Source: a bacterium
GTDB taxonomy: Bacteria > Cyanobacteriota > Vampirovibrionia > Gastranaerophilales > JBAXKC01
Direction of reading: 5' to 3'
Length of the DNA stretch: 64,000 nt
Assembly: GCA_037137535.1 (NCBI GenBank)
Contig: JBAXKC010000008.1
Coordinates: forward strand, 1 to 64,000
The notes below the pieces were generated by a model that searched no databases, was not told where the DNA came from, and saw nothing but the letters and a program-made list of their open reading frames with translations. Numbering within the stretch: the first letter of the stretch is position 1; each line of letters begins with the position of its first letter. The translations under genes were made by a program, and so were the position numbers. This document shows, piece after piece, positions 5,133 through 58,903 of this stretch.

Positions 5133-6674
5133 TTGAAAAAATTACTTACTTCCTTTCAAATGAAAAGTATAGATTATGAAGCAATAACAAATAAAGGAAT
5201 TTCTTCGCTAATTTTAATGGAAAATGCTGGGCAATGTTTATCTGCTGAAATATTAACAATAACAAATGAAAATAATAATGTACTTTTTTTATGTGGAAAA
5301 GGTAATAATGGCGGTGATGGTTTTGTAGCGGCAAGACATTTAGTATTAAACAATATTAATACTAAAGTTATTTCTGTCTTCAGTAAAGAGTCACTTGCTG
5401 GCGATGCACTTATAAACTATAATAATCTACTTAATTTTAACGAAATAATTCATTTAGAAGATATTTCAAAAGAGCACCTCAATGATTTAATCAATAAACA
5501 TGATATTATTATTGATTCGCTTTTAGGAACTGGCTTGAAAGGTGCTGTAAAAGCTCCTTTAGATGACATAATAAAAATTATAAATAACAGCAATAAATTA
5601 GTTATTGCGGCAGATATTCCATCAGGTATTTGTGCTGATACAGGCAAAATATTAGGAACAGCTATAAAAGCAAAGAAAACAGTAACTTTTGCAACGTCAA
5701 AAGTTGGGATGTATTTATATCCTGCATACGAGTATTGTGGAGAAATTATTAATCGTGAAATTAGTATTCCTAAAACACTATTATATCGTAATGAACATAA
5801 TATAAATTTAGTTACCGAAAGTTATATTACACAAATTTTTCCTAAAAGAATTCAAGACTCTCATAAAAATTTATTTGGTAGGTGCATTGTTATAGCAGGA
5901 TCAAAATTTATGCCTGGAGCAGCTTTGTTAACAGCGAAACCGGTTCTAAAAACAGGTTGTGGATACTGTACTTTAATTACAGAAGAAACAAATATACAAA
6001 GTTTATATGCCTTTATCCCAGAATGCGTATTTAAACCGTTAAATTATCCAAATAACAATAATAATGAGCTGATCAAATCAATAAAACAACATAGCTCGAT
6101 TGTAATTGGTCCTGGTTTAACTACATCTAGAGAAGTTATTAACTTTGTGGAAAATTTATTACTAATTATTGAAAATACTAAAATTCCTCTAATTCTAGAT
6201 GCTGATGCTATAAATTGTCTTTCATTTATCAATAAATTTAAACTTCCAGAAAATTCTGTTATTACACCCCATCCTAAAGAGTTAGCTAATTTATTAGAAG
6301 TTAAAATTGAGGATATTCTTGAAAATAAGATATATTTTACAAGATTAGCATCAGAAAAATACAAGTGTACTACAGTACTTAAAGGGACAAATACAATTAT
6401 TTGTGACAAAGATTTGAACATTTACATCAATAACACAGGAAATTCAGCATTAGCAACAGCAGGAACAGGTGATGTGCTTTCTGGTATAATTGGTGGGTTT
6501 GCCGCTCAAAATTCTAATTTTGTCGATATGGTAATATTATCTGTCTATTTGCATGGAAAATCAGGAGAAATAGCTTCTCTCGAAAAAAATGAATACTCTG
6601 TAACTGCGGGTGATGTAATTAATTGCATTGATAAATCAATAAATTCTGTTTTGAGCAGGAGTAATTTTACCTAA
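5133..6674 (+). CDS. nnr: Bifunctional NAD(P)H-hydrate epimerase/dehydratase
   Basis: LMENAG, CGKGNNGGDG, DSLLGTG, DIPSG (YjeF_N) plus GPGL, DADA, TPHPKE, TAGTGDVLSG (YjeF_C). Confidence 0.95.
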   Translation: MKKLLTSFQMKSIDYEAITNKGISSLILMENAGQCLSAEILTITNENNNVLFLCGKGNNGGDGFVAARHLVLNNINTKVISVFSKESLAGDALINYNNLLNFNEIIHLEDISKEHLNDLINKHDIIIDSLLGTGLKGAVKAPLDDIIKIINNSNKLVIAADIPSGICADTGKILGTAIKAKKTVTFATSKVGMYLYPAYEYCGEIINREISIPKTLLYRNEHNINLVTESYITQIFPKRIQDSHKNLFGRCIVIAGSKFMPGAALLTAKPVLKTGCGYCTLITEETNIQSLYAFIPECVFKPLNYPNNNNNELIKSIKQHSSIVIGPGLTTSREVINFVENLLLIIENTKIPLILDADAINCLSFINKFKLPENSVITPHPKELANLLEVKIEDILENKIYFTRLASEKYKCTTVLKGTNTIICDKDLNIYINNTGNSALATAGTGDVLSGIIGGFAAQNSNFVDMVILSVYLHGKSGEIASLEKNEYSVTAGDVINCIDKSINSVLSRSNFT

Positions 6675-7796
6675 AATACATTTATATTTTGCACCTGTGC
6701 AACTTGGTACATTATTAGGAATCCTGAAATATGTGGTGTAAGCTAAAAGGGCAAAGGCCATGGCTTCTTTGTATTTATTAGAAATATTAAAATCATCATG
6801 AGTTAGAATTTTCATTTTTTCTCCAAAATACTTCTTTAAATATTTAATAATCTCCAAATTATATGCTCCTCCACCACCTAAAATGATTTCATCAATATAT
6901 GTTTTAGGGAAAACAAAATTATAATAAGCATCATATATTGTTTTAGAGGTTAACGCCGTTAATGTTGCAACTGCATTATAGGGATTGTCTGGTGAGTATT
7001 TATCAATTTCATCAAAATATTTATCATTAAAAAGCTCTCTACCAGTTGTTTTAGGAGGTTTAATCAAATAGTAACTATTATCTAATAGTTGTTTTAGCCA
7101 TTCTTCATCCACTTGACCATGACTGGATATAACACCACCTGCATCATATTTTTGATCAAAATATTTTTGGATATACATATCAAGCAGAACATTTCCAGGA
7201 CCTGTATCAAAACCGAATGTATCACAATGTCGGCTTAAAATTGTGACATTTCCAATACCTCCTATATTTTGTATTGCTCTATTAACTGAATTATTTTTAA
7301 AAAATATTTCATCCGCAAAACAAACTAAAGGAGCACCTTGTCCACCAGCTGCAATATCTGCTGTTCTGAAATCCGAAATAACTGTAATATTTGTTTTTTC
7401 TGCGATAATTGAAGACTCACCAACTTGTAAGGTACTTTTTTCTGAATAATTATCAAGTAAAGTATTATAAGGATAATGAAATATAGTTTGTCCATGTGAT
7501 CCTATTAAATCGATTTGATCAGACTTATAACCAGAGACAGAAATTAATTCATTTGTTGCTGAAGCAAAGACATCACCAATCAAGAAATTCAATTTACACA
7601 ACTCTTCAATATTTATATTTTGAGAAAATGCGTTAAAAATCATATTTCTAATTGCGGTTGGATATGGAAAAACAAGCCCATCAATAAATTCAACAGATAA
7701 ATCAGGAGTTATTCGGCATAAAGCAACATCAATTCCATCTGCGGATGTACCAGACATTAGTCCTATTACTAATTTATCTTTCATTTGAATTACCAT
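6636..7796 (-). CDS. anmK: Anhydro-N-acetylmuramic acid kinase
   Basis: GLMSGTSADGID, GSHGQT, DFRTADIAAGGQGAPL, NIGGIGN, FDTGPGN, KEAMAFA motifs; the start may be the ATG at 7784. Confidence 0.95.
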   Translation of the reverse strand: MVIQMKDKLVIGLMSGTSADGIDVALCRITPDLSVEFIDGLVFPYPTAIRNMIFNAFSQNINIEELCKLNFLIGDVFASATNELISVSGYKSDQIDLIGSHGQTIFHYPYNTLLDNYSEKSTLQVGESSIIAEKTNITVISDFRTADIAAGGQGAPLVCFADEIFFKNNSVNRAIQNIGGIGNVTILSRHCDTFGFDTGPGNVLLDMYIQKYFDQKYDAGGVISSHGQVDEEWLKQLLDNSYYLIKPPKTTGRELFNDKYFDEIDKYSPDNPYNAVATLTALTSKTIYDAYYNFVFPKTYIDEIILGGGGAYNLEIIKYLKKYFGEKMKILTHDDFNISNKYKEAMAFALLAYTTYFRIPNNVPSCTGAKYKCILGKITPAQNRIY

Positions 7797-7912
7797 TTGT
7801 ATATTACTTTAATATTCTACTTAATAATATTATTAAGTTATGTAACATATTATTGAATTATCACATAAAAACATTAAAGTTTAGAGTGATCTAGCCGATT
7901 TATATAATATAA

Positions 7913-7984
7913 GACCAAATAAATGGTCATACCCCAACCTCCTCCCCAAAGTCTGGTAGCCGCCCAAAAGGTGGCTTTTATTTT
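7913..7984 (+). ncRNA. Candidate small regulatory RNA (5' hairpin, C-rich single-stranded tract, terminator)
   Basis: TATAAT at 7903-7908; hairpin GACCA-AATAAA-TGGTC (7913-7928); ATACCCCAACCTCCTCCCC tract; terminator that pairs fully only on the + strand although both flanking genes are on -. Confidence 0.55.
7958..7984 (+). terminator. Rho-independent terminator (+ strand)
   Basis: AGCCGCC-CAAAA-GGTGGCT then TTTATTTT; the G:U pair works on +, would be a C:A mismatch on -. Confidence 0.75.
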
Positions 7985-7991
7985 GCTTATT

Positions 7992-8609
7992 TTAATTATC
8001 CCAGCCCAATAATGATTTAAACAAGCCAGAACCAATCGCTGATAAAATATTTTTCCTTACCAAATAATTAGCCCTAGAAGAAATTTCTTTTAATTCGACA
8101 TCTTCAAAACCTTTGCCACTTTGTGGTTGCTTTATATTATTTTCAATTAAATATGATTTAATTTGTTCTGTTGTTGCAATACCTGAATTTATTATTACAG
8201 CTTTATATATTTCATAGTTTAAATTATTTTTAGTGCGCAATAAATTTTTAACTTCAGAGATAGCTTTATCAGGATAGAAATAATTACGTTTAACGTCATT
8301 TGCTTCACTATAATTACGTGAAGATAAAGGACTTGAATTATCGTTTTCAGTCTCGGCAAAATTAACGCCACACTTAACTTCATTTTTTTTACTTATATCA
8401 ATTAAGTCTGAGTTTACTAATCGACTTAAACTTAAAATCAAAGTTTTTAATTTTGTTTCTTTTTCTCTTAATGTACTAAGCTTAGTTATACAATCTTCTA
8501 AATACTCTATTTCGGGTTGTAGTTCCTCAAGCTCTTTTTTAGCTTCAGTAACTAATTCTATCAGTCTTGTTTCACTTGAAAGTGAAGTCGATATCTCATT
8601 ATTATTCAT
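7992..8609 (-). CDS. Hypothetical protein: N-terminal coiled coil plus C-terminal winged-helix-like domain (putative DNA-binding)
   Basis: Heptad-rich residues ~15-65, polar linker, C-terminal helix-helix-helix-wing pattern (LNYEIYKAV...TTEQIKSYL...ISSRANYLVRKNILSAIGSGLFKS). Confidence 0.6.
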   Translation of the reverse strand: MNNNEISTSLSSETRLIELVTEAKKELEELQPEIEYLEDCITKLSTLREKETKLKTLILSLSRLVNSDLIDISKKNEVKCGVNFAETENDNSSPLSSRNYSEANDVKRNYFYPDKAISEVKNLLRTKNNLNYEIYKAVIINSGIATTEQIKSYLIENNIKQPQSGKGFEDVELKEISSRANYLVRKNILSAIGSGLFKSLLGWDN

Positions 8610-8779
8610 AACTTACGTCCATTTGTTGTAACATATTTAATTATACAAAATAATTTTCATAAAGCAATTAAAAGTTTTGCCTAACGTAAGTTTTATGAAT
8701 TCATTGATTTATGAATGATGTACATTTACGTCAAAAGTAACGTAAGTATAGCCCTAATGAATAATAATTTTCTTACGTT
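8610..8779. promoter_or_regulatory. Cluster of TTACGT/ACGTAA sites (putative operator array)
   Basis: ACTTACGT 8611-8618, ACGTAAGT 8684-8691, TTACGT-N8-ACGTAA 8726-8745, CTTACGTT 8772-8779 in a divergent intergenic region. Confidence 0.55.
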
Positions 8780-8862
8780 GAACTTAATTTGTTTTTTTTT
8801 ATTGCATTATTAATTAATATCTAATAAATTTAAAGATAAGGTAAATATAGGAAATATTCTAA

Positions 8863-9891
8863 ATGACAGATTTTTATCCAATTAAAACTGATGACGGAAG
8901 TTTAAGCTTATTTAACAACGAAGTCGGAGATGTCTATCATAGCAGCATTGGAGCGTATAAAGAGAGTTTGGAAAAATTTATTTTTCCGTCAAATATTTTA
9001 GATTTTGTACGTAATAACGATGAAGTTTATATTTTAGATGTCTGTTATGGAATGGGTTATAATTCATTTGCAGCAATTGAAGAAATTTTAAAAGTTAATC
9101 CTAACTGTAAAATTAATATTTACGCTTTAGAATATGATATTTCTGTTCTCGCTTTTTCTGTTTTAGTAGAATTTGAAAAAGTTAAGTCTAACTTTATTCA
9201 ATTTATAAAAAAAGGATTACTTAGCTTTGATAAAATTAATGCAGAAATGAATAATTTAACTTTAAAATATCAAATCTCCCCTAGTGTTTTATCATTGAAG
9301 GATAATTCAAGCACATTTGTACATAATATATATTATCGGACTATATCGAATAGAACTAGTTTATCAGAGGCACAAGTTAAAATTCCAGAAATTCATATAG
9401 AAATAAACAAAAATATAAATTTTCATTTATTTATAGCAGATGCTAGAGACTCCATTATGCTTATACACAATAAAATTGATTTTATATTCCAAGATCCATT
9501 TACCCCATCAAAATTACCAACTTTATGGAGTGTTGAGTTTTTCAAATGTTTATATAATTTATTGAAGCAGAATGGTAATTTAACTACATATAGTGCCGCA
9601 TCTCCAATTCGTTCTGGATTAATTGAAGCTGGATTTCTTATTGCAAAAACTGAACCTGTTGGAAGAAAGAATTGTGGAACAATAGCTTATAAAGATTCAG
9701 AAGCCACTTATAAACAGCTTACGGAAGAAGAGACAGGCCTACTAGAGACTAATGCCGGTATTCCATATTATGATATGAATTTATCAGCGACTGCAGAAGA
9801 TATTTTAAGTTTTCGTGAAGAAATGATTAGTTACTCAACTAGACAATCCACCAGTAGTTATTTTAAAAGCTTAAATAAAATAAAAGATTAA
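8863..9891 (+). CDS. MnmC-family (MnmD-like) SAM-dependent methyltransferase
   Basis: TDDGSLSL, YHSSIGA, ILDVCYGMGYN, ADAR, FQDPFTP...PTLWS, TTYSAA motifs; no FAD oxidase domain. Confidence 0.85.
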   Translation: MTDFYPIKTDDGSLSLFNNEVGDVYHSSIGAYKESLEKFIFPSNILDFVRNNDEVYILDVCYGMGYNSFAAIEEILKVNPNCKINIYALEYDISVLAFSVLVEFEKVKSNFIQFIKKGLLSFDKINAEMNNLTLKYQISPSVLSLKDNSSTFVHNIYYRTISNRTSLSEAQVKIPEIHIEINKNINFHLFIADARDSIMLIHNKIDFIFQDPFTPSKLPTLWSVEFFKCLYNLLKQNGNLTTYSAASPIRSGLIEAGFLIAKTEPVGRKNCGTIAYKDSEATYKQLTEEETGLLETNAGIPYYDMNLSATAEDILSFREEMISYSTRQSTSSYFKSLNKIKD

Positions 9892-9958
9892 CCTATATAA
9901 ATAAGGCTAATCTTAAAAGCAATTATAGCCAGCATCTATAAATAAATTAATATATAGT

Positions 9959-58433: not shown

Positions 58434-58593
58434 AATTAGTTCCCCCTAAGACTCCCACGTCTTTAAAAACTATATTCCCCAAGATAATAATTATAATTTT
58501 TTATATATATTGATAAATACCCCAATCCCCTAGACTTCTTTAAGTCATTTCAGATAATATTGTTTGGATTAATTCCTCCTTTCATCAAAAGAT

Positions 58594-58780
58594 CCAAACA
58601 AATTGTCATACCCCTTATCTCCTAAATATCCCCTAAATCCCAAATTCTTTAAATTTCTATAAAAAGTTAACCAAATAAATGTCCATACCCCTAAACTTCC
58701 TTTTGTAAACCATCCCCTAATTTTTTATAACATATTAAATATTTTTATAAAAAAATGTTTCAAACAAATGGTCATACCCC
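58594..58780. repeat. Three degenerate 21-bp direct repeats, also present at 7915-7935
   Basis: CCAAACAAATTGTCATACCCC 58594-58614; CCAAATAAATGTCCATACCCC 58671-58691; TCAAACAAATGGTCATACCCC 58760-58780; CCAAATAAATGGTCATACCCC 7915-7935. Confidence 0.9.
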
Positions 58781-58903
58781 AGAACCTGCCTTTTATCCCT
58801 CCTAACTCTTAAAATAATCTAAATTTAAATATCATTATAATTTTCTAATTCACTAAGGCTTTATTTTCTCTATCCTTCTTGTTTCTGATTTATACCTTAC
58901 ATA

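Follow-up and report, generated by a model that had tools for sequence, protein, structure and literature searches.

The question raised by the gap between two minus-strand genes near the start of contig JBAXKC010000008.1 (assembly GCA_037137535.1) is whether it holds a gene for a small RNA (sRNA) and, if so, from which promoter this gene would be read and on what its product would act. The window, i.e., the whole stretch of 64,000 nucleotides (nt) of this contig that was analysed, belongs to a source genome (G000) of 2.95 Mb in 81 contigs, which are referred to by C-numbers (C1, C4, C27, etc.). An earlier interpretation made from the letters alone (henceforth the sequence-only reading) had pointed out a TATAAT hexamer, a hairpin, a C-rich stretch, and a terminator in the gap, all of which were found in the window at the positions it gave, and had proposed an orphan sRNA of ~70 nt on the plus strand. 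The reading arrived at here, to which a probability of roughly 0.6 is assigned, is that window 7910-7984 (+) is one of nine copies of an sRNA of ~75 nt with a FliA-type promoter, the C-rich tract of which would block Shine-Dalgarno regions.

The region was compared by BLAST with its own genome, which returned nine copies, and the same number was obtained with R2, a family-wide covariance model made in this analysis that scores window 7900-7989 (+) at 55.6 bits. Three of the nine lie in tandem on contig C4 with a period of 161 base pairs (bp). In the alignment, all copies are nearly identical from the 5' hairpin to the U-tail; their upstream parts have diverged save for two blocks, TAAAGTTT and GCCGATAA, 11 nt apart, and similarity stops just beyond promoter and terminator. 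The genes next to the copies are mutually unrelated: one copy follows flgE directly and in the same orientation, one adjoins a chemoreceptor gene, and another is situated just upstream of a gene of the HD-GYP type. Given these nine copies, and the family across the order and class described below, the term "orphan" was not borne out.

Homologues were collected from related genomes. A BLAST search with the 73-nt core gave a match in 33 of the 41 genomes of the same order (source genome included; 9 further families), the public records of which are titled Gastranaerophilales or Melainabacteria, and these relatives often carry 2-6 copies, at times in tandem. An exact-pattern scan for the core with one genome per species yielded at least 119 stretches; among the matches listed (80 titles), 45 were labelled as Gastranaerophilales, Melainabacteria, Vampirovibrio, or cyanobacteria, 3 as other Candidatus taxa, and 9 otherwise, with 23 unlabelled. 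From these matches, 148 unique family loci were assembled.

Conservation of the hairpins and the C tract in relatives, on which the sequence-only reading had staked its claim, was found. Without recourse to an alignment, the stretch of 37 nt in front of the C tract was more stable when folded than its shuffles on average in 146 of the 148 loci, with a mean 5' hairpin energy of -9.0 kcal/mol versus -1.9 kcal/mol in shuffles. The hairpin occurs in 103 distinct sequences (stems of, e.g., GACC/GGUC, GGGC/GCCC, AGGAC/GUCC, CAGGGG/CCCCUG, and UAUGAAAAAC/GUUUUUCAUA), and double changes were observed at 10 of the 10 modelled 5' hairpin pairs. RNAalifold, run on 146 sequences aligned plainly with MAFFT, recovered the terminator; at the inner pairs of its stem, UA alternates with CG in 40 and 47 of the sequences. 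In addition, a covariance model (R1) was built from alignment A3 (28 sequences of one hairpin class) and used to align 85 matches (alignment A4), in which 87.6% of the cells were paired versus 73.7 +/- 0.7% in shuffles (reached by 0 of 500), and changes on both sides were found at 17 of 17 pairs (slid controls, 24-52%). Because A4 was fitted to the model, it leans towards structure; the alignment-free and MAFFT results are without such bias. The segment CCUCCUCCCC(A)AGUCUrGUAGCCG between the helices varies hardly or not at all; the corresponding DNA string CCTCCTCCCC..AGTCT.GT.GCCG is (near-)invariant across the 146 aligned loci, and the unpaired tract core ACCUCCUCCCCAAGUC is nearly invariant across the family. 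The proposal that the tract is also an "anti-AUG" was not supported by the comparison, as CAU lies within the 5' stem or is absent in most relatives.

At the locus itself, the plus strand of 7912-7984, treated as RNA, folds at -18.9 kcal/mol (z = -3.06; equalled by 0 of 200 shuffles) and leaves the C tract unpaired in its centroid; the minus strand reaches z = -2.10 (equalled by 4 of 200 shuffles). The C-rich stretch is embedded in DNA with a G+C content of ~24-34%. In the terminator stem, AGCCGCC (7958-7964) is paired with GGTGGCT (7970-7976), one of the pairs being G:U, and TTTATTTT (7977-7984) comes next. A terminator scan called this site on the plus strand only, in line with the sequence-only reading, and counted 3 terminator-like sites in 2 kb versus 0.6 +/- 0.7 in shuffles. 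It is mainly the match of the other copies and the relatives that places the element beyond chance. The same comparison upholds the proposed layout of 5' hairpin, unpaired C-rich tract, and intrinsic terminator, and what was proposed as a plus-strand sRNA of ~70 nt now reads as a predicted RNA of ~70-75 nt on that strand. Judged by these patterns of conservation, the loci are a conserved, structured family of predicted sRNA genes. Contigs from three metatranscriptome runs of the same sample, which share next to no sequence words with window 6600-9900, gave no match on 7700-8100, a result that bears on expression in neither direction.

An element repeated nine times could also be a dispersed repeat similar to miniature inverted-repeat transposable elements (MITE) or repetitive extragenic palindromic (REP) sequences, or could carry on its minus strand a small open reading frame (ORF) that is preceded by a strong GGAGG ribosome-binding site and may specify a type I toxin, with no RNA gene involved at all. 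On the minus strand of the window copy, GGGGAGGAGG-N8-ATG indeed precedes an ORF of 18 codons at 7930-7874, and the short minus-strand peptides look hydrophobic. However, no ATG is found within 12 nt of GGAGGAG in 36 of the 148 loci, its offset varies elsewhere (2, 3, 6, 8, or 9 nt), the resulting ORFs have 1 to 36 codons and as many as 95 different N-termini, and compensatory stem changes are seen even at loci where the ATG is lost through them. The small ORF was rejected on these grounds (missing ATG, variable spacing and length, diverse N-termini). A mere dispersed repeat is likewise inadequate, because single, conserved, covarying copies exist across an order; most genomes of one family (f3 in Table 1) hold a single copy that is still conserved, and the copies in the source genome share plus-strand promoter and terminator, with similarity ending just beyond them. 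Altogether, an explanation without an RNA gene is considered very improbable.

The phylogenetic range of the family was determined in two samples. R2 matched 49 of 50 genomes of family f3, most of them with a single copy, and gave one borderline match in the 100 other genomes of the phylum-wide sample. This match (28 bits, E-value 0.009) was in a photosynthetic cyanobacterium (G146), was not at that genome's Yfr1 locus, lacked the core tract, and was discarded. The class-wide sample consisted of 150 other genomes, in which the sRNA was scored by R2 or the core pattern (Table 1). The core was present in 12 of the 118 genomes from other orders of the class; in these out-of-order homologues, the core CCCCAACCUCCUCCCCAAGUC stands between a 5' hairpin and a different terminator, and the core AACCTCCTCCCCAAGTC is also found there. 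A TAAAG...CGAT motif was recognisable upstream in 3-5 of 6 such homologues inspected.

Table 1. Occurrence of the sRNA, the FliA/WhiG-type sigma factor, and flagellin in the class-wide sample (genomes with a match/genomes scored)
Family	sRNA	FliA/WhiG over cut-off	Flagellin
f3	31/32	32/32	0/32
f39	2/2	2/2	2/2
f42	2/17	17/17	17/17
f45	7/14	14/14	14/14
f47	1/1	1/1	1/1
f40	0/30	0/30	0/30
f41	0/30	28/30	30/30
f43	0/9	7/9	0/9
f11	0/12	12/12	0/12
f44	0/2	0/2	0/2
f46	0/1	1/1	1/1

The sigma factor by which the RNA would be transcribed was approached through the two conserved upstream blocks. The TATAAT hexamer, taken for the promoter by the sequence-only reading, is not kept in the other eight copies; the conserved signals are TAAAGTTT (7875-7882) and GCCGATTT (7894-7901). 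TAAAGTTT is identical in 8 of the 9 genomic copies and is separated from the second element by N11. All perfect genomic matches to TAAAGTTT-N10-12-GCCGATAA (6/6) precede copies of the element, and the other three copies deviate at one or two positions, the window copy (TAAAGTTT-N11-GCCGATTT) at two. Across the family, the motif was found with at most 4 of 16 mismatches in 98 of 148 loci versus 18 of 740 shuffles. Its conserved letters are TAAAG and CCGA, the spacer of 11 or 12 nt is fixed across the class, and in the CCGA core C is kept in 122, G in 121, and A in 105 of the 128 loci tallied. Family f3 has the motif at a fixed position, as AAAGTTT with CCGTATA or CCGATAT. This promoter matches the FliA motif TAAAGTTT-N11-GCCGATAA, for which E. 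coli served as comparison: promoters from chromatin immunoprecipitation sequencing of FliA have the same form, e.g., tar (TAAAGTTT-N11-GCCGATAA), tsr, and flgMN, as listed in Table 2 of PMC4183435.

The source genome encodes a FliA/WhiG equivalog at C23:27701-28375 (247 bits, cut-off 189.6) as well as seven flagellin-like genes, flgE, flgD, fliK, flhA, and others, and one of the flagellin genes has TAAAGTTT-N11-ACCGATAG upstream. In the class-wide sample, all 43 RNA-bearing genomes belong to families with FliA in every genome, so that each RNA-bearing genome has the sigma factor, and the 36 genomes that gave no FliA match were all negative for the RNA; these counts are not independent, since the genomes are related to one another. 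The co-occurrence lends support to the predicted FliA dependence. All of the multi-copy relatives tested (5/5) were flagellin-positive, and the gene was most likely amplified in flagellated lineages.

Several observations weigh against FliA control and a role in flagella. The coupling to flagella is not general, as family f3 nearly always has the RNA with no flagellin found and family f41 shows the reverse, i.e., flagellin in every genome and FliA in most with no RNA detected (Table 1). The f3 promoters are degenerate, with at most four mismatches in 13 of 32 loci (versus 3 of 160 shuffles). Within the source genome, the motif occurs within 260 nt of only 1 of the 7 flagellin genes, and most of its other matches precede unknown or non-flagellar genes: the 13 candidates are the one flagellin, a Tad-pilus operon, genes for an HD-GYP protein and for a protein with an MgtE_N domain, and others that are unknown or unrelated. 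This set is too mixed, and a flagellar regulon is therefore not confirmed. Finally, a TAnnnT hexamer is present just upstream of the hairpin in several copies.

The last point bears on the alternative that an ordinary sigma-70 promoter drives the RNA and that TAAAG...CCGAT is another signal, e.g., the binding site of a regulator. A promoter scan scored TTTAGA-17-TATAAT at 7880-7908 with 10 of 12, TAnnnT hexamers occupy the equivalent place in other copies, and both the retention of the RNA by f3 without flagella and the non-flagellar genes behind most motif matches would be accommodated. Against this stand the lack of conservation of TATAAT among the nine copies and the frequency of sigma-70-like promoter matches, which is at the level of chance in such AT-rich DNA (14 versus 13.3 +/- 3.5 in shuffles). 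In addition, TAAAG and CCGA retain their G and C letters throughout the class, at a constant spacing of 11-12 nt, and FliA is found in every RNA-bearing genome of the sample. Sigma-70 control is consequently regarded as unlikely, and the sRNA is most likely driven by a sigma factor of the FliA/WhiG type, as far as can be read from promoter conservation.

Further features were observed near the promoters. The nine copies, as well as several relatives, have a recurrent TTGTTAAG / TGTAAC / TTGTAAA-like motif (window 7839-7860) at ~40-50 nt before TAAAGTTT, which may be an UP-element or the binding site of a regulator. At f3 loci (e.g., L053, L059, and L126), a small hairpin followed by AGATTTT lies ~75-100 nt upstream of the sRNA; its stems covary and read CUCCUCC/GGAGGAG in some genomes. 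The gene prs adjoins the RNA in 3 of the 4 f3 loci looked at, so this hairpin may be the prs terminator. Separately, FliA/WhiG-type sigma factors scoring over the equivalog cut-off exist in melainabacterial families of the class-wide sample in which flagellin was not found (f3, f11, and f43; Table 1), where their regulon must be a non-flagellar one.

Possible targets were predicted by scoring the 2002 start regions with a Shine-Dalgarno-like motif against the unpaired core, with the reversed core as control. The two best duplexes (-34.5 and -31.3 kcal/mol) lie well beyond the best of the control (-22.7 kcal/mol), and each is predicted to form 15 bp with one bulge and to span the Shine-Dalgarno sequence. 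They concern C27:7547 (417 amino acids (aa), start region ...AGACUAUUGGGGAGGAUUUAUG) and C1:112581 (189 aa, start region ...UUUGGGGAGGCAGGUUUAUG), two proteins unrelated to each other and without a family in a Pfam search. Both genes are situated among sugar-nucleotide and glycosyltransferase genes, C1:112581 also near fliJ and the flgE cluster. The top 30 include FlgN, FlgI, FlgL, FliK, two GT4 glycosyltransferases, an HtrA-like protease, and two LuxR-type response regulators, and the ribosome-binding site of flgE contains a 10-nt match to the tract. Many of the best predicted targets start with AUG GGN, i.e., Met-Gly.

With these predictions, the preferred reading can be spelled out as a sequence of steps. 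Each copy would be transcribed from its own FliA/sigma-28-type promoter (TAAAGTTT-N11-GCCGATAA), and the free C-rich tract of the RNA would pair with the G-rich Shine-Dalgarno regions of certain mRNAs, which would block ribosome binding as with other sRNAs with C-rich seeds. The exposed C-rich stretch probably silences genes by covering their ribosome-binding sites. In flagellated lineages including that of the source genome, the amplified gene would extend the FliA regulon by post-transcriptional control; the best target candidates are the two unrelated genes of unknown function in sugar/glycan neighbourhoods, followed by flgN, flgI, flgL, fliK, and flgE.

This pairing model has findings set against it. 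Genome-wide, complements of the tract of 9 nt are not enriched (203 versus 222 for the reversed control), and the reversed control is weak because it shares CCUCC and CCCC runs with the core. Orthologues of the best target share a G-rich Shine-Dalgarno sequence without the extended pairing, and the flagellar genes of one cluster may simply share G-rich ribosome-binding sites. Partial complements beside fliA in 3 of 5 f3 genomes lie inside a coding region, where they correspond to conserved codons for KRLxE(D/E)E, and were dropped as targets.

The missing enrichment would also suit a real RNA that acts by protein binding, in which the C-rich tract is a protein site and the RNA a decoy or sponge of an RNA-binding protein. 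The tract is invariant over ~24 nt in the order, including AGUCUrGUAGCCG past the anti-Shine-Dalgarno part, which exceeds the need of a short seed, and the gene dosage of nine copies suits titration. A protein-binding alternative was also raised for the Yfr1 motif by the authors who described that RNA (PMC2190773, section 6). Yet no candidate protein emerged, and the two start regions with 15-bp complementarity are far outside the control distribution. The source genome does have a clear CsrA gene (C1:47184-47339); CsrA binds GGA motifs and not C runs, which counts against it as the partner. Protein titration is thus judged quite unlikely, and base pairing of the C-rich tract with Shine-Dalgarno regions is retained as the preferred mode of action. 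Besides the CsrA gene, the source genome has a sub-threshold Hfq-like ORF (17.8 bits). The leaders of the flagellin genes C44:15161-15577 and C6:76647-77060 contain short hairpins with GGA in the loop (GCGUAAGGAUACGC, GGCGUAAGGAAAGCGCC), and the combination of such leaders with CsrA is reminiscent of the translational control of flagellin by CsrA in Bacillus and Campylobacter.

Further sites were recorded. Intergenic positions C45:3576-3590, located after a 102-aa ORF and with no clear gene start nearby, contain a 14-nt perfect complement to the genome's own seed version with an extra A (CAGACTTTGGGGAG). Window 58433 (-) and C4:101458 (-) have near-identical G-rich start regions (UUAGGGGGAACUAAwUAUGGG) in front of proteins of 95 aa and 265 aa, respectively, neither of which had a Pfam match. 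Upstream of the former, at window 58584-58793 (wider 58440-58830), a degenerate unit of 44 nt occurs three times in tandem, at spacings of 77 and 89 nt, and resembles the 5' half of the sRNA (…CAAAyAAATGGTCATACCCC…); the 21 nt at 58761-58781 agree fully with 8 of the 9 sRNA copies. These units are without the CCUCCUCCCC core, promoter motif, and terminator. On the minus strand, they form part of the ~400-nt leader of the 95-aa ORF (58433-58146) and would be complementary to the sRNA there; they may represent decayed copies, or a target or sponge with several sites.

The features of the locus are compiled in Table 2. Both neighbouring genes are on the minus strand, and the ends of the predicted RNA were derived from promoter spacing and the U-tail.

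Table 2. Features in and around the predicted sRNA gene (positions in the window)
Feature	Position	Strand	Basis
AnmK gene, neighbour	6636-7796	-	
-35-like element TAAAGTTT	7875-7882	+	conserved among genomic copies; sigma-28/FliA type
-10-like element GCCGATTT (GCCGATAA in 6 other copies)	7894-7901	+	copy alignment
TATAAT hexamer	7903-7908	+	sequence
Predicted small RNA, ~75 nt	7910-7984	+	5' end from promoter spacing, 3' end from U-tail, both inferred
5' hairpin, GACCA (7913-7917) pairing with TGGTC (7924-7928), 6-nt loop	7913-7928	+	fold
C-rich stretch CATACCCCAACCTCCTCCCC	7928-7947	+	sequence
Unpaired C-rich tract AUACCCCAACCUCCUCCCCAAAGUCUGGU, predicted seed	7929-7957	+	unpaired in centroid structure
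Intrinsic terminator, 7-bp stem, 5-nt loop, TTTATTTT tail	7958-7984	+	terminator scan, fold
ORF of 205 aa, converging on the sRNA terminator; no match in Pfam or NCBIfam	7992-8609	-	

The element was then compared with known RNAs. Rfam 15 gave no family at gathering score in the whole 64-kb window; matches at E <= 10 near the element (HPnc0260, AaHKsRNA82, and others; 8-22 bits versus gathering scores of 40-100; E-values 1.4-9.7) were at the level of chance and were set aside. Searches of a limited literature collection found no work on sRNAs of Melainabacteria or Vampirovibrionia and none joining Melainabacteria with Yfr1, and among the papers listed by a broader search combining melainabacterial names with sRNA terms, a melainabacterial term occurs only in one on rumen microRNAs. 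The family is thus new to Rfam and, as far as the literature was searched, to the literature. In kind, it is a familiar one, namely a family of predicted trans-acting RNAs with a C-rich anti-Shine-Dalgarno seed. Among the Firmicutes, the unpaired C-rich motifs of RsaE/RoxS, the Staphylococcus sRNAs with UCCC motifs, and Listeria LhrC pair with Shine-Dalgarno sequences, and LhrC is multi-copy with some copies in tandem; the present family differs in phylum, and the Rfam search of the window had no match at gathering score.

The near-invariant seed, the covariation in both stems, the FliA-type promoter, the defined phylogenetic range, and the short list of candidate targets provide experimental handles, and the family would give a first entry to post-transcriptional control in this uncultured, non-photosynthetic, gut- and water-dwelling sister group of the cyanobacteria. 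With it, there is also a concrete case on which to ask if Yfr1, near-universal among cyanobacteria, has a relative beyond the photosynthetic lineage.

Yfr1, which the sequence-only reading had invoked for its layout, is an sRNA of nearly all photosynthetic cyanobacteria and is defined by two stem-loops flanking an unpaired stretch of 16-20 nt with the ultraconserved undecanucleotide ACUCCUCACAC, in a total of 54-69 nt, with a 5' stem of 6-10 bp and a GC-rich 3' stem of 6-9 bp plus U-tail, according to the description in PMC2190773. The present family shares with it the phylum and the order of 5' stem-loop, unpaired ultraconserved pyrimidine-rich tract, and GC-rich terminator hairpin with U-tail (PMC2190773), as well as the hexamer CUCCUC, which was seen in a true Yfr1 locus. 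It differs in the conserved motif (ACCUCCUCCCCAAGUC here, ACUCCUCACAC in Yfr1), in being multi-copy with a FliA-type promoter, and in its dimensions (21-30 nt unpaired, 5' stems of 4-13 bp, predicted size ~73-80 nt). The Rfam Yfr1 model (RF01116) matched none of the nine copies at E <= 10 and was also absent from the matches at that threshold in window 7700-8100; its best match in the source genome reached 14 bits (C16:38147-38167, gathering score 38). As a control, the model scored 55-62 bits in three photosynthetic cyanobacterial genomes, and R2, conversely, had no match on the Yfr1 loci of these genomes. The new family is therefore Yfr1-like in predicted layout, and membership in Yfr1 is not shown. 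A more far-reaching proposal would make the family the melainabacterial counterpart of Yfr1, descended from a shared ancestor, put under a FliA/WhiG-type sigma factor, and amplified to up to nine copies in flagellated lineages, where it would couple this sigma factor to the translation of mRNAs for surface glycans and flagella as an anti-Shine-Dalgarno regulator that depends on gene dosage, with the repeats at 58584-58793 as target or sponge on the opposite strand; as a whole, this is thought improbable.

Sigma-28-dependent sRNAs are described in other bacteria. UhpU, MotR, FliX, and FlgO of E. coli are under FliA control, as is predicted for the present RNA, and belong to the flagellar cascade; they are derived from untranslated regions, as described in PMC10578931, whereas the RNA here appears free-standing, with its own promoter and terminator and in many copies. 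Functionally, the nearest described cases are probably CJnc170/FlmR and CJnc10 of Campylobacter jejuni, with which the comparison is by description (PMC4626219; PMC11187230). These are likewise small paralogous sRNAs in which a conserved interaction region is followed by a terminator stem-loop, they have sigma-28 promoters, and they are predicted to pair with the ribosome-binding sites of flagellar mRNAs, e.g., flgE. They belong to another phylum, are shorter than 50 nt, and are without a 5' hairpin, and the melainabacterial RNA, unlike them, is also present in a family in which flagellin was not found.

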